Made by a program: the position numbers and the translations under genes. Shown one piece after another: positions 2,667-39,723 of a DNA stretch of 64,000 nt. The stretch comes from a virus (Duplodnaviria > Caudoviricetes), in the IMG/VR virus record IMGVR_UViG_3300028797_000128, positions 32,001 to 96,000 of that record, one strand, 5' to 3'. Below the pieces are notes generated by a model. It did no database searches and had not been told where the DNA came from. It saw only the letters and a list, made by a program, of their open reading frames with translations. Every line of letters begins with the position of its first letter. Position 1 is the first letter of the stretch.

Positions 2667-2720
2667 TGCCTGTATGGAATAGGGCTTTTAATTAGCTGTA
2701 AAAACCCTTTAGAAAACAGC
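2667..2720 (-). repeat. Intergenic pseudoknot-forming motif, copy 1
   Basis: Near-identical to 3675-3724; predicted H-type pseudoknot with compensatory changes in stem 1. Confidence 0.75.
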
Positions 2721-2739
2721 TTTAAACTTTGATTTTATT

Positions 2740-2883
2740 TTACTTTTCCCATATCCAGTTTATTTTGTCAACTGTAAAATAATTCAGTAAAAACGATTGA
2801 ATATAATATATTTTATCGTCATAGCTAATTTTGTCCGACTGCATTATTTTTTCAATAACGCTGCATTTTTCCTGATTAGTCAT
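2740..2883 (-). CDS. Small hypothetical protein (47 aa)
   Basis: Manual translation MTNQEKCSV...; GGAGG RBS. Confidence 0.6.
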   Translation of the reverse strand: MTNQEKCSVIEKIMQSDKISYDDKIYYIQSFLLNYFTVDKINWIWEK

Positions 2884-2900
2884 AACATCAAACCTCCATT

Positions 2901-3161
2901 TTATAATAATTTAAGATTCAATATTTTTCCCGTTTCTTCATCGGCTGCAAGATCGCATCCGCAAAACGGACAATATTTGATATGAATAGTTTTATATGTT
3001 TTTTGTCCGTTCAATTTGCATCCGGTCACAACGTCAATAAATGTGCTTACATCGTGGCGGCGTACCATTGCAATTTCCTGTTTATGTTCTGTTGTGTATT
3101 TGTCCGCGTCTGCACACTGATGCACAACAGTTTCCTCAAAATCATTATGCCTATACATCAT
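2901..3161 (-). CDS. Hypothetical protein with CPFCG zinc-ribbon half motif
   Basis: ORF track, GGAGG RBS, IKYCPFCG. Confidence 0.8.
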   Translation of the reverse strand: MMYRHNDFEETVVHQCADADKYTTEHKQEIAMVRRHDVSTFIDVVTGCKLNGQKTYKTIHIKYCPFCGCDLAADEETGKILNLKLL

Positions 3162-3191
3162 AATATATAACCTCCAAAAGATATATTTACA

Positions 3192-3262
3192 GATTCAGCG
3201 GGCTTGTGACCGCCTCCGGCTGCATTACCGCGGGAAAAATCCCGCGTCACTCTGCATTGAAA
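3192..3262 (-). ncRNA. Twister self-cleaving ribozyme, circularly permuted (type P5-like)
   Basis: Minus strand reads GCAGAGUGA-CGCGGGA(UUU)UUCCCGCG-GUAAUGCAGC-CGGAG-GCGGUCACAAGCCCGC: twister core elements UAAUGCAGC, GGUCACAAGCCC and GCAGAGUGA with GUGA/UCAC pseudoknot. Confidence 0.88.
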
Positions 3263-3270
3263 TTTGAATT

Positions 3271-3636
3271 TTATTTGCTGAATTTGAAAGTTGTCACGCT
3301 TTTTACTGCTCCGTCGGGGCGTACACTTGTAACTCTTGTGGGAATATATCCGCAATATGTGTATGATTTGCCCGTAACTTTCACACCCAACCATGCACCA
3401 ATCCATGTCATGTGATTTAAGAACTGCTCCGCTGTTATCTCTGTTGTATCACTTTCAACGGGCTTTTTGCTCCAATTGCCGCCCGTTGTTTTGTGGTATA
3501 ATTCATGTGTTTGTGTAATCGTTCCGCCCGATTCACAAAAGCCTATGATTGATTCTATGCGGATATTGTACTTGCTAAAAGTTTTTGCATACTGTTTGTA
3601 CTGCTCAAAAAGAGCTAAAACCTGATTATTATTCAT
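3271..3636 (-). CDS. Early hypothetical protein
   Basis: ORF track, AAGGAGG RBS. Confidence 0.8.
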   Translation of the reverse strand: MNNNQVLALFEQYKQYAKTFSKYNIRIESIIGFCESGGTITQTHELYHKTTGGNWSKKPVESDTTEITAEQFLNHMTWIGAWLGVKVTGKSYTYCGYIPTRVTSVRPDGAVKSVTTFKFSK

Positions 3637-3674
3637 AAAATAGCCTCCTTTAAAATATTAATTTGATTTGTTTT

Positions 3675-3724
3675 TGCCTATGTGGAATAGGGCTTTTTTT
3701 GCGGAAAACCCTTTAGAAAACCGC
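3675..3724 (-). repeat. Intergenic pseudoknot-forming motif, copy 2
   Basis: Shares TGGAATAGGGCTTTT and AAAACCCTTTAGAAAAC (plus strand) with 2667-2720. Confidence 0.75.
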
Positions 3725-3729
3725 TGCTT

Positions 3730-4035
3730 TTATCGGTCATACTCTACAATGTAAAGATATCCGAATCCATCTTTTTCACCGAAAAAATCAAATTCCATAA
3801 TAAAATTGTAGTTGTCTCTTAAGAATATTTGATGTTCATAAGGCTGCATTTTGCATATTTCTGTTGATGTTCTGCTGTTGCTTTTTTGAATCGGATTCAC
3901 AAACTGTTCAAATGAATCCATCCACATATCAAGAGAAATGCCGTGCTTTTCGCAGAACTTTTCACAGTGTTTGTAAAATGCCTCTACGTTCTTAAAATGA
4001 CGGTTTGTCTCTATTTCGTATAACTTCTTTTTCAT
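3730..4035 (-). CDS. First gene of leftward early operon, hypothetical
   Basis: ORF track, AAGGAGG RBS. Confidence 0.8.
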   Translation of the reverse strand: MKKKLYEIETNRHFKNVEAFYKHCEKFCEKHGISLDMWMDSFEQFVNPIQKSNSRTSTEICKMQPYEHQIFLRDNYNFIMEFDFFGEKDGFGYLYIVEYDR

Positions 4036-4149
4036 AGTGAATCCTCCTTAAAATTATTGTTTAATGGTTTGTTTTCGTTTGGTGCTTTTATCGGTATCAT
4101 TGCAACCGATTCAAGCATATTCAAGCGGTCAACTGTATGAGTCAACCGC

Positions 4150-4178
4150 TTGACATTTACCGCTTTTTGCGGTATACT
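4150..4178 (+). promoter_or_regulatory. Rightward sigma-A promoter with palindrome in spacer
   Basis: TTGACA-17bp-TATACT; TACCGC-TTTTT-GCGGTA palindrome between the boxes. Confidence 0.6.
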
Positions 4179-4337
4179 TGTTATGTATCTTATTGCATTC
4201 TCGATATATAGGATTCACTTGCCTTTATGTTATTCCGCTTTCGGCGTATTTATTATCGCCCTACTTGCGGCATATAGGATTAAATCCCCCGCGTTGCGTT
4301 GTTTTACGCGGTTTGAGTCTCCCGTGGTTATTGAGGC

Positions 4338-4376
4338 ATAAAAAAAGCCCCTCAGGGAGTCACCTCCTCAGAAGGT
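4338..4376 (-). terminator. Intrinsic terminator/attenuator in early leader
   Basis: Imperfect GC-rich hairpin followed by 7 U on minus strand, ~60-95 nt after the 4438-4466 promoter. Confidence 0.5.
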
Positions 4377-4437
4377 TCGACGGGTTGAGTTACGCGCCCC
4401 CGTGATAGCGGTCTGCCATTGCTCTTGCTGTGATTAT

Positions 4438-4466
4438 ATAATACCACATCATTTTTGATTTGTCAA
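4438..4466 (-). promoter_or_regulatory. Main leftward early sigma-A promoter overlapped by operator-like direct repeat
   Basis: TTGACA-17bp-TATTAT; ACCACATCATTTTTG at 4443-4457 repeated at 4503-4517, partial copy at 4546-4555. Confidence 0.75.
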
Positions 4467-4805: not shown

Positions 4806-5694
4806 CCAGTACAATATAATTTATCGTTATTCAATAATTTATTATTGTTTTGCATATTATACAGCGTATAGCATTCTATTTTGCGTTTAAATGCCTTTTT
4901 TTGACGTTCTATCAATTCATAGTTAATACTATATATAGTGCAATGCGATATCAGAATAACGGAAAATAGGCGTATAATGTGAGATGTGATACTATATGTT
5001 GTGTTTTTGTTGCATTTGCAACACTTTTTTCAATTTTGCGAACTGTTAATATCATAATGATAATATCAAATTGATAATAACATTGATTCAGGAGCTTGTA
5101 ACCATTAAAGAAATATTAATAAAATAAGAATTTAAACAATTGCATTTGGACAAAACGATTGTTTGGCTATATATAGCAGTTTTTGCCGTATCCGTGACGG
5201 GGCTATATTTACATTTTCAAGGCGGATCGAGGCAGCCCCGGCAGGCACAGGTGATGAATCGCACTGTCCGTTAATTTTTTAAAGTCTGCGAAATTTATGC
5301 CATTTTTCATCGCTGTCATTTTCGGACAAATCCCCGTAAATAGCCATTAAGAGATAATGCAAATCCCAACATTTTTAGACCAAAACCAACCAAAATCCCC
5401 ACTTCTCTGCAAAATATGGGGCTTTGGGACGAATGGGGAGTTTTGCGGACTTTTTTATTAGTACGGACTACTCTAATTCTCACCACTACAATAAGAGTAG
5501 GGCAACTATTATTAAGAAAAATAAATATTTTTTATTAGAGGCTTCCGAAGAAGTTGTGGCTACTGTAAGAGTAGGAGTTACTCTCTGTCTTGTCAGCTCC
5601 TAACGCAATGCCGTTGCTTACGCAACGTCACCGCCCCAATCATGGGGCTTTGCTTTTTCGCCTTACGGCGAAGAAAATTTTTTCTTTTAAAGGC

Positions 5695-5723
5695 TTGACA
5701 AATCAAGAGATTAGTGTTATAAT
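5695..5723 (+). promoter_or_regulatory. Rightward sigma-A promoter (family copy 1)
   Basis: TTGACA-17bp-TATAAT with TG extension. Confidence 0.88.
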
Positions 5724-5750
5724 ATAATTGCAGAGTAAGAAATGAGAATT

Positions 5751-7203: not shown

Positions 7204-7446
7204 ATGAATGGAGATCACTTTAAAATGTTCTTTAACGATTTGACCTTTCATACGTTTTATTTTAGCGAAAAGAATTATAAATGGCGTTATAATTGGGTAG
7301 GAGATAAAATTAAACTTTATTATGGTCGCAATTTATATTGTACAATTCAAATTATAAATGAATCTAAAATATATCTGGACAAAGAATTATCTGAATATGA
7401 TGATTGGTTTGCGGAAGTTTTTAAAAAATATTTCAAAAACTCTTGA
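7204..7446 (+). CDS. Hypothetical protein
   Basis: ORF track, AAGGAG RBS. Confidence 0.7.
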   Translation: MNGDHFKMFFNDLTFHTFYFSEKNYKWRYNWVGDKIKLYYGRNLYCTIQIINESKIYLDKELSEYDDWFAEVFKKYFKNS

Positions 7447-7471
7447 CAAGTCTATAAATTAGTGCTATAAT
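7443..7471 (+). promoter_or_regulatory. Rightward sigma-A promoter (family copy 2)
   Basis: TTGACA-17bp-TATAAT; shares ATTAGTG.TATAATATAAT with copies 1 and 3. Confidence 0.85.
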
Positions 7472-7544
7472 ATAATCAGAAAAGGGGATATTCCTTTCAT
7501 ATCCCCTCACAAAGCAACAAATTATAGATAAGGTGATGAAAACA

Positions 7545-8060: not shown

Positions 8061-8114
8061 ACTAAGCAAGGAGCCCCATAATCTAAAACACATGGGAGGA
8101 ATTGCAAAAAACGC

Positions 8115-8143
8115 TTGACAAATCAAGAAATTAGTGTTATAAT
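8115..8143 (+). promoter_or_regulatory. Rightward sigma-A promoter (family copy 3) upstream of tnpB
   Basis: 8113-8150 matches 5693-5730 at 37 of 38 positions. Confidence 0.88.
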
Positions 8144-8218
8144 ATAATTGTGGGGAACAATATAATTTTTCTCTATTATTATATCCTTGCATAACAAGAA
8201 ATGAAAGGTGGTGAATAA

Positions 8219-9316
8219 ATGTTTAGAGCTTACAAGATGAGAATATTCCCAACAGAAGAACAAAAAACATTGATAACAAAGACTTTTGGTTGCTGCCGTT
8301 GGTACTGGAATCAGGCATTGCATGACAATATAGAATATTACAAAGAAAACGGCAAGGGCAAAATAACAACTCCCGCAAAATATAAAGCGGAGAATGAATG
8401 GTTAAAAGAAGTGGATGCTGTTGCATTGTGTTGTACTCAAATGGATCTGCAATCGGCTTTCTCTAAGTTTTTCAAAAAACCAAATGTTGGATTCCCTAAA
8501 TACAAATCTAAGAAAAGACCTAAGAACAGCTACAAAACAACTCAAACACGAGGATTTGTTGTTGGAGATGATTATGTAAAGCTTACGAAATTAGGTAAGG
8601 TTAAACTTATAAATCATCGTCACAAAACTGGAACGTGTAAATCGGCTACGATATCACTCACATCAAGTGGCAAATACTATGTGTCTTGTTTATTCGAGGA
8701 AGATATTGACTTTCTGTCAGAGACAAACAAGGAAGTTGGGATTGACTTAGGTCTTGCAGATTTGGCAATTTGCTCCGACGGCACTAAGTTTCCTGTGCTT
8801 AGGGCGTTGCGTAAGAATTTAGCAAAACTAAAGAGAGAACAACGTAAACTTAGTAAAATGACTTTCGGTAGCAATTGCTATCTAAAACAAAAACAAAGAG
8901 TAGCAGAATTGCATGAGCATATAGCAAATCAGCGCAAAGATTATTTACATAAGGTAAGCCACAAACTCATAAACGAGAACCAAGTTGTGTGTTTGGAGGA
9001 CTTAAATGTAAAGGGTTTGCTCAAGAATCATCATCTGGCTCTATCAATATCTGACGTTGGCTGGTCTAAATTTGTATCAATGCTACAGTACAAGGCAGAT
9101 TGGTATGGCAGAACAGTACAGAAGATAGGGCGATTCTATCCGAGTAGTCAGATATGCAGTAGTTGTGGTTGCGTAACAGGTAAGAAACCATTGCATATTC
9201 GAGAGTGGGTTTGCCCTGAGTGTGGAGCAAAACACGACAGAGATGTAAACGCAGCTAAGAATATACTGCAAGAAGGTAAAAGAATTTTGGCGGCAAGCAC
9301 TTGTCGTGACAGGTAG
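8219..9316 (+). CDS. tnpB: RNA-guided endonuclease TnpB
   Basis: N-terminal HTH (TFGCCRWYWN), RuvC GIDLG / CLEDL / HDRDVNAA, zinc finger CSSCG..CPECG. Confidence 0.96.
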   Translation: MFRAYKMRIFPTEEQKTLITKTFGCCRWYWNQALHDNIEYYKENGKGKITTPAKYKAENEWLKEVDAVALCCTQMDLQSAFSKFFKKPNVGFPKYKSKKRPKNSYKTTQTRGFVVGDDYVKLTKLGKVKLINHRHKTGTCKSATISLTSSGKYYVSCLFEEDIDFLSETNKEVGIDLGLADLAICSDGTKFPVLRALRKNLAKLKREQRKLSKMTFGSNCYLKQKQRVAELHEHIANQRKDYLHKVSHKLINENQVVCLEDLNVKGLLKNHHLALSISDVGWSKFVSMLQYKADWYGRTVQKIGRFYPSSQICSSCGCVTGKKPLHIREWVCPECGAKHDRDVNAAKNILQEGKRILAASTCRDR

Positions 9317-9793: not shown

Positions 9794-11086
9794 AATTTCG
9801 GCGCGTACTCGTGACTTTAGTCGTGAGTTAGCCGAAACAATATCTCAAATAAGACAATACATACAAAATCAGAAAGAGAGGTGATATTATGGAGAAAGCG
9901 TATAAGTTTAGGTTATATCCTAATAAGGAGCAACAGATTCTTTTGGCAAAGACTTTTGGTTGCGCACGCTTTGTTTATAATTATTATCTCGACAAAAGGA
10001 TAACTGCTTATAAAACTGATAAAACTACATTAAGTGCTTACGATTGTATAAGAGATTTGACTTCTTTAAAGAAAGAGTATGAATGGCTTAAAGAACCTGA
10101 TAAGTGTGCATTGCAGAATACGCTAAAAGATTTGGATAGTGCATACAAAGGATTCTTTAAGTCGGGCAAAGGCTTTCCCAAGTTTAAATCAAAGAAAACA
10201 CATAGATATTCATATAGAACTTCTTATACAAATAACAATATACAATTCTTAGGTAACTCAATCAAACTACCTAAACTTGGTAAGGTTAAAATCAGAGATA
10301 AGCAGATTCCACAGGGTAGGATTCTTAATGCTACAATATCTCAAACACCTTCTGGTAAATACTATTGTTCATTATGTTGTACAGATGTAACAGTAGAACC
10401 TTTTGAAAAGACTGGAAGTGTAGTTGGTATTGACTTAGGTATTAAAGAATTTGCAATAACGTCTGATAATGAACACATTGAAAATCCTAAATATTTAGCA
10501 AAATCTTTAAAGAAACTCGCTCGGTTACAACGTCAACTTTCTCGAAAAACAAGAGGTAGTAATCGTTGGAATAAGGCAAGAATAAAGGTTGCTAAGTGTC
10601 AGGAACAAATTGCAAATCAAAGAACAGACTTCTTACACAAACTATCTACAAGACTTGTAAAGGAATATGATGTTATTAGTCTTGAAGATTTAAATGTAAG
10701 CGGTATGCTTAAAAATCATAAACTTGCAAGAAGTGTTTCTGATGTGTCGTGGTCGCAGTTTACTACTATGTTGCAATACAAAGCTAATTGGTACGGCAAG
10801 GATATTATCAAAATAGATAGATTCTTTGCGAGTAGCCAGTTATGCAATGTGTGTGGCTATAAGAACACTGAGACTAAGGATTTAAGTGTTAGGTCGTGGG
10901 TGTGTCCTAACTGTGGCACTTCACATGACAGAGATGTTAATGCTTCAATAAATATATTGAACGAAGGACTAAGGCAAATAGTCTAACATATGTAAAGCGG
11001 TAGGAACTATCGTGTTAGCTCGTGGAGAAAGTAGGTTACGAAATCTATGAAGCGAGAACCCTACGACTTTAGTCGTGGGAGGTTCA
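9791..11086 (+). mobile_element. tnpB-only IS200/IS605 (IS1341-type) element 2
   Basis: Preceded by TTGAT; left and right subterminal hairpins share GACTTTAGTCGTG (9808-9827, 11060-11079); ends GGTTCA. Confidence 0.88.
9889..10986 (+). CDS. tnpB: RNA-guided endonuclease TnpB
   Basis: [17 protein letters not shown] / SLEDL / HDRDVNA catalytic D-E-D, CNVCG..CPNCG zinc finger. Confidence 0.97.
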
Positions 11087-22319: not shown

Positions 22320-22393
22320 GGCAGTTTGGTGAAATGGTATCATATAAGGTTCATACCCTTATGTTCCAAGTTCGACTCTTGGGGCTGCAACCA
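22320..22393 (+). tRNA. tRNA with CAT anticodon (Met/fMet or Ile2)
   Basis: Cloverleaf: D arm GTGA/TCAT, anticodon arm TAAGG-TTCATAC-CCTTA, T arm CCAAG-TTCGACT-CTTGG, encoded CCA. Confidence 0.9.
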
Positions 22394-31952: not shown

Positions 31953-32408
31953 ATGGTAAGATTTCATTCTGTAGAGGAAATTGAGCACTCTGCTCATAGC
32001 GTTCCTAATGTAACTGCACACGCAGATATGCCTAATGGCGCACTCGTTGGTCTGACATATACTAATGCTTCAAAGGTGACAAAAGCACCTGCAACAGCTA
32101 ACGATCTTTATGTTGTTATTAACACACAGACAGGCGACAATGAGTACATCACAAACTACACAATCAAGCAGGGTGAGTATGTAAACCTCTTTAAGCTTGA
32201 GAATTGGGTAGGCAAGGAGCTTGACGTAACTAAGGATAATGTTACAGGTACATATGCAAACATTGCCGCTGGTGATACTCTTACATTCGATGCTACAACA
32301 TTTAAGTTTAAGGAAGATACACCTGCCGCTGCTGGAGATATCTGCTTCAAGGTTCTTGAACTCGCTCCTTATGGTCTTAGAGTTCTTGTACAGGTATATT
32401 CTGCTTAA
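31953..32408 (+). CDS. Head decoration protein (YonC-like)
   Basis: Position between scaffold and MCP; strongly biased codons. Confidence 0.6.
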   Translation: MVRFHSVEEIEHSAHSVPNVTAHADMPNGALVGLTYTNASKVTKAPATANDLYVVINTQTGDNEYITNYTIKQGEYVNLFKLENWVGKELDVTKDNVTGTYANIAAGDTLTFDATTFKFKEDTPAAAGDICFKVLELAPYGLRVLVQVYSA

Positions 32409-38577: not shown

Positions 38578-39093
38578 ATGGCAAACATTATTGAAATCAC
38601 TGACAAGAACCCACTCGTCAATAAGACGGTGCGAATCGGCAAAGTGGCAGTAACAGTAAAAAGCTATCTCAGTGCAGATATCTACGCTGAAATAGCCAAT
38701 ACAATTGCAAATTCTTCGTTTGATGAGACAGGAGCATATCGTCCCGAATACCGTGAAATCGCCCGTCGCTATGTTGTGCTGAAGTACATGACAGACCTCG
38801 ACTTGGGTGAGATGGACACAAGTGAGATATTCAAAGTTACACAGTCTGGAACATGGTACAACACTATTATTAACGAGGTGAACAAGCTCCCCGTATGGGC
38901 AGAACTTGAGCAGTCCGTGGACGAAATCATCAACTATAAGTTGCTCACTCGCAAGACATCATTTGATGACCTGTGTGAAACTCTCTCCGCATTTGCAGAG
39001 AAAATGAGTGACACAAAGTCGCTTGATGAGATTGCTGAAAAACTCACAAACCTTGATGATAAGGCTGTGGTTGAAACTATTGTAAACAAGTAA
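38578..39093 (+). CDS. Hypothetical protein (possible tail assembly chaperone)
   Basis: ORF track, synteny. Confidence 0.6.
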   Translation: MANIIEITDKNPLVNKTVRIGKVAVTVKSYLSADIYAEIANTIANSSFDETGAYRPEYREIARRYVVLKYMTDLDLGEMDTSEIFKVTQSGTWYNTIINEVNKLPVWAELEQSVDEIINYKLLTRKTSFDDLCETLSAFAEKMSDTKSLDEIAEKLTNLDDKAVVETIVNK

Positions 39094-39529
39094 GCGTTTC
39101 TAAAACATCTCCAAAGATGAGATTGAGTCCTTTCTTTTGTAAAGCAACAACTTTCTTGGCTTTGGAGATTAACTTTTTGCGATCCTTGTGAGGTATCTGT
39201 ACGGGTGTTCCGTCACCGAGATATTCGTTCTTGATATATTTGTCTGTTGCCGGACACATATTTTGAAGGAGAACAGCCTTTCTGTGACCGAGAACATCAC
39301 AGAAATCTATGGTATCGCACTTGCCGTATCTTGCAATCTTTTGGTTGTAGATACGCTCAAATTTTTCTACGTGAGAAGAAATTGGTATAAGCCAAAATGC
39401 GCTACCGTCTGTAAAAGCGCAGAAGTAGGGACGATTGTGATTCTCATCCTTATGGGCGTTCATAAAATGCGGATTAGGGAAATCTTTAGCGTATTGGTCA
39501 TTGAGAAAATAGAAGTGTCCGATAGTCAT
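39077..39529 (-). CDS. cptN: Type III toxin-antitoxin toxin, CptN family endoribonuclease
   Basis: GHFYFL.D.Y...NRPYFC...WLIPISS..EKF...CDTI...LLQNMCP..DKYI..EY matches the CptN pattern; preceded by RNA repeats and terminator. Confidence 0.88.
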   Translation of the reverse strand: MTIGHFYFLNDQYAKDFPNPHFMNAHKDENHNRPYFCAFTDGSAFWLIPISSHVEKFERIYNQKIARYGKCDTIDFCDVLGHRKAVLLQNMCPATDKYIKNEYLGDGTPVQIPHKDRKKLISKAKKVVALQKKGLNLIFGDVLETLTCLQ

Positions 39530-39542
39530 GGTATTCTCCTTA

Positions 39543-39577
39543 TAAAGAAAGCCTCGCTGATTAGAGCAAGGCTTAAA
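39543..39577 (-). terminator. Terminator between antitoxin repeats and toxin gene
   Basis: Minus strand AAGCCUUGCU-loop-AGCGAGGCUUUCUUU. Confidence 0.8.
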
Positions 39578-39579
39578 TT

Positions 39580-39672
39580 TGAGCCGATATATTTATGCGA
39601 CGCTTATCGGTAGCGACAAACATATAAAGCCGACATATTTAAGTCGCTTGTCGGTGGCGACAATAAGCAATA
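39580..39672 (-). ncRNA. cptI: Type III antitoxin RNA (CptI-like), two ~46-nt pseudoknot repeats
   Basis: Repeats 39582-39627 and 39628-39670; loop-tail pairing CCGAUA/UAUCGG vs CCGACA/UGUCGG covaries. Confidence 0.85.
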
Positions 39673-39694
39673 ATATAGGTTTCCCTATGATTGT

Positions 39695-39723
39695 ATTATA
39701 TCACAATGAAACGAATTTGTCAA
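39695..39723 (-). promoter_or_regulatory. sigma-A promoter of cptIN
   Basis: TTGACA-17bp-TATAAT with TG extension. Confidence 0.85.

Follow-up and report, generated by a model that had tools for sequence, protein, structure and literature searches.

Between the early genes of phage T7 lie RNase III hairpins, which are cut by the host nuclease and stabilize individual mRNAs. Other phage operons carry RAGATH-named motifs and clustered hammerhead and twister ribozymes, one element per intergenic gap, between small genes and on the gene strand; no explanation is at hand for this placing of self-cleaving ribozymes among small phage genes. A further class of RNA, the tRNA-like structure of the turnip yellow mosaic virus (TYMV) type, sits at the 3′ end of an RNA-virus genome, and synthetic pseudoknots built on the same plan depend on an added 3′ RCCA for cleavage by bacterial RNase P RNA, which falls in loop 1 beside stem 2 (Kosek et al., PMC12710915, which also reviews RNase P cleavage of the TYMV structure). 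Here, we describe a compact, conserved RNA motif that occupies the same slots as the phage ribozymes and has an end resembling, in sequence and predicted fold, a pseudoknotted tRNA acceptor arm. It was recognized as two copies in a 64,000-nt stretch of DNA (positions 32,001–96,000 of IMG/VR record IMGVR_UViG_3300028797_000128; Duplodnaviria, Caudoviricetes), hereafter the window, on which all coordinates are based. The motif is a widespread phage RNA family uncatalogued in Rfam 15.

The motif is an H-type pseudoknot of ~45 nt whose segments follow one another in the order stem 1, pyrimidine loop 1, stem 2, stem 1, loop 3, stem 2, and N-CCA. Stem 1 is variable (3–6 bp) and stem 2 spans 9–11 bp; loop 1 is short and pyrimidine-rich with a UUCU end, and loop 3 is A-rich and 1–6 nt long. 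Both copies lie on the minus strand where the earlier note on this DNA had placed them, as confirmed by sequence, and both were scored with a covariance model (R1; 15 members, with stem 1 as the modeled helix). Copy A was scored although it had been left out of the R1 seed; its stem 2 was also recovered by RNAfold (z = −2.1). The pair columns of copy B were checked on alignment A6. The parts of the two copies are:

3683–3724, minus strand: copy B of the motif (R1 model, 67.2 bits)
3721–3724 with 3701–3704, minus strand: copy B stem 1
3715–3720, minus strand: copy B loop 1 (U-run, then CU)
3705–3714 with 3687–3696, minus strand: copy B stem 2
3697–3700, minus strand: copy B loop 3, A-rich
3683–3686, minus strand: copy B N-CCA
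2675–2721, minus strand: copy A of the motif (R1 model, 48.3 bits, E ~1e-11 to 1e-13)
2716–2721 with 2694–2699, minus strand: copy A stem 1
2711–2715, minus strand: copy A loop 1
2700–2710 with 2679–2689, minus strand: copy A stem 2
2690–2693, minus strand: copy A loop 3
2675–2678, minus strand: copy A N-CCA

Stem 1 changes compensatorily between copies A and B, as the earlier note had read it. The pairing proposed there for a second stem also holds, but the helix is three pairs longer than first read and has no bulged G, because allowing a U.G wobble makes it continuous. Since stem 2 extends by those three pairs, what had been taken for a conserved AUUCCA..AGGCA tail is mostly helix plus N-CCA: its CCA part stands, whereas AGGCA is confined to these two copies and one close relative (L032). 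The extra pairs, which became visible from divergent copies, join the three nucleotides after UUCU with the three that follow the CCC block. Copies A and B have A-U, A.A, A-U at this top end of the helix; other members have fully complementary triplets of many kinds there. Upper stem 2 always has six positions, below which come a U.G (or C-G) pair and then one to four U-A pairs. At position 2 from the top (A6 column 20 vs. 64), A stands opposite A in 72 of 96 sequences, and most of the others are Watson–Crick paired. Many positions of the motif are conserved at ≥97%, and the GGG/CCC core of stem 2 occasionally covaries.

Covariation supports the formation of both stems as an RNA-level H-type pseudoknot. 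Across alignment A6, 12 of the 14 modeled pairs change on both sides (5/5 in stem 1 and 7/9 in stem 2), and pairing cells reach 87.2% observed vs. 73.1% shuffled. The covariation score is 0.314 vs. 0.098 in shuffled alignments, with 0 of 500 shuffles reaching the observed value; slid-partner controls score at most 0.093. An independent stem-1 finder placed a helix of at least 3 bp in 99 of 104 copies, comprising 56 distinct helices, and scored 8.85 vs. 5.41 ± 0.24 with permuted partners. The two interleaved stems also constrain each other in length: Loop 1 lengthens with stem 2 (rho 0.47), stem 2 is longer where stem 1 and loop 2 together are shorter (rho −0.49), and the stacked length of stem 1, loop 2, and stem 2 is held at 13.9 ± 1.2 bp. 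These three relations indicate that both stems form at once; the sequences are mutually related, and the p-values are therefore not probabilities. The suggestion that this is an RNA element has thus been borne out by covariation of both stems across ~96 distinct homologs.

The size of the family emerged from pattern and model searches combined. Two initial single-block scans returned mostly chance matches, whereas a gapped pattern spanning both halves retrieved 37 IMG/VR loci, ~35 of them real. R1 and further pattern scans brought the total to 99 matches (E ≤ 0.005; 96 distinct) from 86 sources (IMG/VR phage contigs and metagenome-assembled genomes, MAGs, of Clostridia); carrier contigs range from ~8 to 127 kb. 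A loose genome scan likewise gave mostly chance matches; in the 100 genome loci searched (of 120 returned), only 16 matches passed the model. Model-confirmed genome matches come mostly from gut and rumen MAGs (Oscillospiraceae, Ruminococcus, Butyricicoccus, Christensenellaceae, and other Clostridia), with one or two copies each. A single locus can hold up to five copies, dispersed 0.3–2.4 kb apart between open reading frames (ORFs). In the window, the 16-nt and 14-nt conserved blocks each occur exactly twice in 64 kb, and a genome search of the whole 106-kb phage found these two motif copies only. In public RNA runs, only small shares were matched, in bovine and sheep gut metatranscriptomes; four runs gave short contig fragments of relatives, which are uninformative about RNA ends and expression.

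Comparison with catalogued RNAs returned no family for the motif. In a 1.8-kb search relaxed to E ≤ 10, neither copy matched any Rfam 15 family, in line with the earlier note's failure to recognize one, and full-form homologs matched none; gathering-score scans of 41 motif loci matched other elements only. Literature searches found no paper describing the motif, and an unnamed earlier listing is possible: PMC10690425 has 10,006 IMG/VR candidates without names, of which the motif may be one. In our view, the RNA family is new but its general kind is known, being that of intergenic phage motifs associated with ribozymes and of tRNA-like pseudoknots.

The motif has a fixed place relative to genes, whichever genes these are. 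A same-strand ORF ends with its stop codon a median of 15 nt before stem 2, that is, 0–10 nt before stem 1, and the next start codon follows a median of 43 nt beyond CCA. The flanking ORFs are small and gave no informative matches in a PHROG search; the 81 downstream ORFs fall into 55 clusters and the 87 upstream ORFs into 62. Because these clusters are unrelated, the element is not gene-specific, and its spread over unrelated phages and genes implies that it acts alone or through a universal host factor. Orientation, which the earlier note had proposed as a check, tracks the genes: In each of the 13 multicopy loci, all copies are on one strand, which argues against a site acting in DNA.

In the window, copy B lies between a 101-aa ORF (3730–4035) and a 121-aa ORF (3271–3636), and copy A between a 47-aa ORF (2740–2883) and a 78-aa ORF (2392–2628). 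The intergenic gap between the two copies holds, on the same strand, the twister ribozyme that had been noticed from sequence among these early genes; it proved real. One promoter heads the transcription unit that contains both copies and the twister, and in a consensus scan, the next sigma-70-type promoter on the minus strand is at 1279–1307. The accompanying features are:

4438–4466, minus strand: sigma-70-type promoter, 11/12 consensus matches with extended −10 TG (consensus scan, repeat family D6)
3198–3256, minus strand: Twister-P5 ribozyme RF02684 (Rfam, 64.1 bits vs. gathering 37.6, E = 5e-11)

The third long intergenic gap of this operon, 89 nt at 2080–2168 on the minus strand, contains a perfect 11-bp hairpin followed by a second, overlapping hairpin, with arms similar to stem 2 of one motif subclass. 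As a candidate third copy, it was rejected: It lacks UUCU, stem 1, and CCA, and the model gave no match there with filters off. The element may be a decayed motif copy or a different element.

Known ribozymes occur in the same operons elsewhere. In 5 of 42 sources, the strand that carries the motif also carries hammerhead or twister ribozymes: the window and loci L224, L144, L231 (twister), and L272. Locus L144 is the clearest case of ribozymes and motif alternating, with three type II hammerheads and one motif copy in successive intergenic gaps (299–395, 1159–1227, 1380–1448, and 2023–2069, all minus). The ribozymes in motif loci show the same layout: Their distance from the preceding stop codon is −1 to 20 nt in 5 of 7 copies (the exceptions are L272 with 53 nt and L224 with 110 nt), and all six with a downstream ORF stand 12–36 nt before the next start. 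RAGATH-16 was found in L220 (1959–2030), 140 nt downstream of the motif on the same strand, and RAGATH-33 in L136 (2373–2485); none of 17 control loci contained a hammerhead, twister, RAGATH-16, or RAGATH-33. The motif thus recurs near twister and hammerhead ribozymes in the manner of RAGATH-type elements, in a small sample. A gut-2 motif was also observed in one motif-bearing locus (L133, 365–412).

The motif shares with the RAGATH-named elements and clustered ribozymes the arrangement of one element per gap, small phage genes, and gene strand; it matches none of the catalogued RAGATH models and has a different, pseudoknot-plus-CCA fold. A search for swaps, in which a homologous gene would stand behind the motif in one phage and behind a ribozyme in another, returned only same-locus matches in BLAST comparisons of flanking ORFs, and no relatives emerged when loci were searched by protein with the 121-aa downstream ORF. 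From placement and layout, we infer that the motif is a generic punctuation of intercistronic mRNA and does there what twister and hammerhead ribozymes do in neighboring gaps.

The conserved ends of the pseudoknot point to a specific mechanism that the first reading of this DNA had missed. CCA lies one nucleotide past stem 2 in 95 of 96 aligned sequences, the intervening nucleotide being U in 79, C in 14, A in 2, and G in 1, and the leader before stem 2 ends in U in all members. Most copies were retrieved by patterns containing UUCU and CCA, and unconstrained cases were checked separately: With the tail left free in the search pattern, N-CCA was present in 34 of 35 real members; with loop 1 left free, UUCU was present in all copies; and seven copies outside all retrieval patterns have UUCU as well as CCA while their helix core varies compensatorily. 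The motif presents a helix followed by single-stranded N-CCA and preceded by a single-stranded 5′ leader, a feature of tRNA-like RNase P substrates. The same phage encodes one tRNA with comparable ends:

22320–22393, plus strand: phage tRNA-Met gene, with an encoded ACCA end and U at −1

Two further regularities concern the nucleotides around CCA. In the commonest class, the pre-CCA nucleotide covaries with the first stem-2 nucleotide (A-U 73, G-C 12, C-G 1): The pre-CCA U becomes C when the first stem-2 base changes from A to G, and the register at this helix end involves either a mismatch or a bulged A. Directly after CCA, a hairpin starts in 48 of 89 members vs. ~10 in shuffles. Nearly half of these hairpins are GNRA-looped; both window copies are without one.

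We tentatively favor, as possible though short of probable, the reading, drawn by analogy, that the motif is an intercistronic signal at which host RNase P cleaves where UUCU meets stem 2. Stems 2 and 1 would form a continuous stack of ~14 bp in imitation of the acceptor arm of a tRNA, complete with discriminator, CCA, and U at −1. Host RNase P would then cut between UUCU and the first stem-2 nucleotide, leaving the upstream cistron with a 3′-OH end, and the downstream cistron would start with a 5′-phosphate on a stable hairpin, which would slow its 5′-end-dependent decay. The cleavage points predicted on this basis are:

3715/3714, minus strand: predicted cleavage point in copy B (loop-1 U3715, stem-2 A3714)
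2711/2710, minus strand: predicted cleavage point in copy A (U2711, A2710), by the same reasoning as for copy B

This mechanism was ranked first because of the acceptor-arm strand order, the pseudoknot precedent (PMC12710915), and the U at −1 and encoded CCA of the phage's own tRNA-Met. The likeness to TYMV-type and synthetic substrates extends to strand order, coaxially stackable stems, and N-CCA. The differences are also clear: The phage motif is internal to DNA-phage mRNAs and has no mimics of the T, D, or anticodon arms, its stem 2 is 9–11 bp rather than 4–5 bp, its pre-CCA nucleotide is mostly U or C and possibly paired, and a hairpin often abuts CCA. The T7 hairpins offer a functional analogy only, being double-stranded elements of ~20 bp or longer cut by RNase III, whereas the motif would be a 14-bp pseudoknotted stack with CCA.

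Several observations weigh against RNase P cleavage. The cut is a prediction, and the relatives in public RNA runs are contig fragments; co-occurrence with ribozymes (5/42 vs. 0/17) is suggestive, not significant; and pattern-free support for the invariance of UUCU and CCA is limited. Where RCCA has a purine before CCA, most members have a pyrimidine, and the covariation of this nucleotide with the first stem-2 base implies that it may be paired, next to a bulged A, rather than a free discriminator. Where a hairpin abuts CCA, as in about half of the members, CCA would be a junction and not a free tail. The motif has no T-loop mimic, and a search for a T-arm or elbow mimic or a cloverleaf remainder with ARAGORN and the Rfam tRNA model found only the true tRNA-Met at 22320–22393. 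Finally, the stem-2 core and loop 1 are conserved far beyond the needs of an RNase P substrate, which fits a catalytic core or a sequence-specific partner. The points on the pre-CCA pyrimidine and its covariation, the abutting hairpin, the T loop, and the strong conservation favor the main rival, a new self-cleaving ribozyme.

In that rival, which we consider a less likely but serious candidate, an active site would be built from the pseudoknot, UUCU, the conserved A.A (or bulged A), the U.G wobble, and the junction at CCA, with the optional GNRA hairpin as a peripheral stabilizer. Much of the evidence above can be read this way: The motif shares slot and layout with twister and hammerhead ribozymes of the same operons, moves among unrelated phages and genes as a self-acting RNA (or one served by a universal host factor) would, resembles pistol in size, and in half of its copies adds a GNRA-capped hairpin abutting the junction. 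A pseudoknot with many positions conserved at ≥97% also satisfies the Weinberg/Breaker criterion for a biochemically demanding RNA (PMC5737381). On the other hand, no known ribozyme model matches the motif, its conserved unpaired core is very small (about seven nucleotides), and the CCA after the helix is already explained by tRNA mimicry. Only three motifs found near ribozyme-associated genes are said to have proved catalytic. The full form of the proposal, a ~45-nt pseudoknot ribozyme with UUCU loop and CCA junction as its active site, interchangeable with twister and hammerhead in cutting phage operon transcripts, is doubtful by our own estimate.

Among known ribozymes, pistol (RF02679) comes closest, as a small phage-associated Firmicutes RNA. 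Its short first hairpin pairs through its loop with a strand farther downstream, giving a G-C-rich pseudoknot, and a further hairpin comes next. The motif has counterparts of P1 and of the pseudoknot, and P3 has an optional one, but there is no room for P2, because loop 3 (1–6 nt) joins the pseudoknot strand directly. Nor is there a fixed two-nucleotide cleavage junction; the post-CCA hairpin is absent in about half of the members, with nothing conserved after it, and the RF02679 model gave no match even at E ≤ 10. The motif was therefore rejected as a pistol variant.

The motif could instead be a passive, uncleaved element, mechanically stable and possibly triple-helical, that blocks exonucleases of either direction (3′-to-5′ or 5′-to-3′) at cistron borders or insulates or couples translation; we regard this as rather unlikely. 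Stem 1 begins 0–10 nt past the stop codon, inside the footprint of a terminating ribosome, and a role in translation insulation or coupling would follow because ribosomes that terminate there have to open stem 1. The phage also has, at another place, a gene read from sequence as a beta-CASP nuclease. Triple-helix pseudoknots such as those of telomerase RNA, SAM-II, and ENE are unusually stable, which we count for this reading. The motif resembles the pseudoknots of telomerase RNA, SAM-II, and preQ1-II in having a U-rich loop 1 that would face the junction U-A pairs of stem 2 and an A-rich loop 3 that would face stem 1. Its loop-1 U run tracks the number of junction-proximal U-A pairs (rho 0.65), the invariant loop-1 C aligns with a putative partner, the likewise invariant G in the conserved pair (U.G or C-G), and ~66 of 96 sequences have A in the loop-3 columns.

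The conservation pattern is consistent with the major-groove triple helix that the earlier note had likened to telomerase RNA, but the triplex is unproven, because loop-length geometry alone predicts the same U-run trend; that note's reading is, overall, partly supported. The motif differs from telomerase RNA, SAM-II, and preQ1-II in lacking a template/TERT context, a ligand-type gene context, and any Rfam match, and its own marks are the fixed six-pair upper stem 2 and CCA, both of which a passive role would leave unexplained. If motif and ribozymes alternate in equivalent gaps, moreover, a shared activity is expected, and that activity would be cleavage. Pairing with the downstream ribosome-binding site was no more specific than in permutations (duplex energy −8.48 vs. 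−8.32 ± 0.27). On the same figures, an outer closing helix was rejected as unspecific, in which the purine-rich ribosome-binding region would pair with loop 1 or with the pyrimidine-rich flank upstream, the helices drawn there by RNAfold being compositional.

Binding or cleavage by a sequence-specific protein other than RNase P, of phage or host origin, such as a T4 RegB-like endoribonuclease or a tRNA-end-binding enzyme, seems improbable. Sequence conservation of the stem-2 core, loop 1, and CCA alongside a variable stem 1 is typical of protein recognition. The partner, however, would have to be present in carriers of ~8 to 127 kb with unrelated neighboring genes; no shared partner gene was seen in the ~15 kb examined per locus, and the flanking ORFs gave no informative PHROG matches.

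A riboswitch or aptamer of the SAM-II or preQ1-II type, a type III toxin decoy, or a DNA-level site is very improbable: Although SAM-II and preQ1-II are likewise H-type pseudoknots with a major-groove triplex, which the motif may share, and although type III antitoxin RNAs are also pseudoknots and the phage carries such a system at 39077–39723, the motif matches no Rfam riboswitch, precedes diverse orphan genes (55 clusters) in several copies per operon, and leaves the ribosome-binding site 30–60 nt away, outside a fold that no U tract follows; it forms no tandem arrays, has no adjacent toxin gene, and bears no likeness to the phage's own antitoxin repeats; and its strand always follows the genes, with both stems covarying. 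Three simpler candidates were rejected outright: coding sequence (no frame, loop-3 indels, and stem covariation), an intrinsic terminator (no U tract), and a 16S 3′-end mimic in loop 1 (a likeness of only 4–6 nt).

What the motif means for phage gene expression depends on which mechanism holds. Its interest lies in being a compact, conserved RNA in the very slots that phages otherwise fill with self-cleaving ribozymes. Cleavage by host RNase P would make it the first natural and widespread use of tRNA-acceptor mimicry as mRNA punctuation in DNA phages, and ribozymes and tRNA mimics would be interchangeable ways of separating cistrons; if it cuts itself, it would be a new ribozyme class. For synthetic operons in Firmicutes, the motif could be of use as a compact module, easily moved, for processing or insulation.

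Other features of the window were noted in passing. Between the promoter at 4438–4466 and the first ORF of the unit lies a G+C-rich, apparently structured leader of ~380 nt (4040–4430, minus), which had no Rfam match at gathering score. Within it, ~90 nt downstream of the promoter, a short hairpin precedes a run of seven T (around 4335–4355); this could be a small RNA or an attenuator. On the plus strand, diverged paralogous ORFs at 8219–9316 and ~9900–11000 contain a TnpB-like zinc-finger/RuvC stretch (families D8, D12, D14, and D15), and three near-identical consensus promoters stand at 5689–5730, 7437–7478, and 8109–8150 (family D4).

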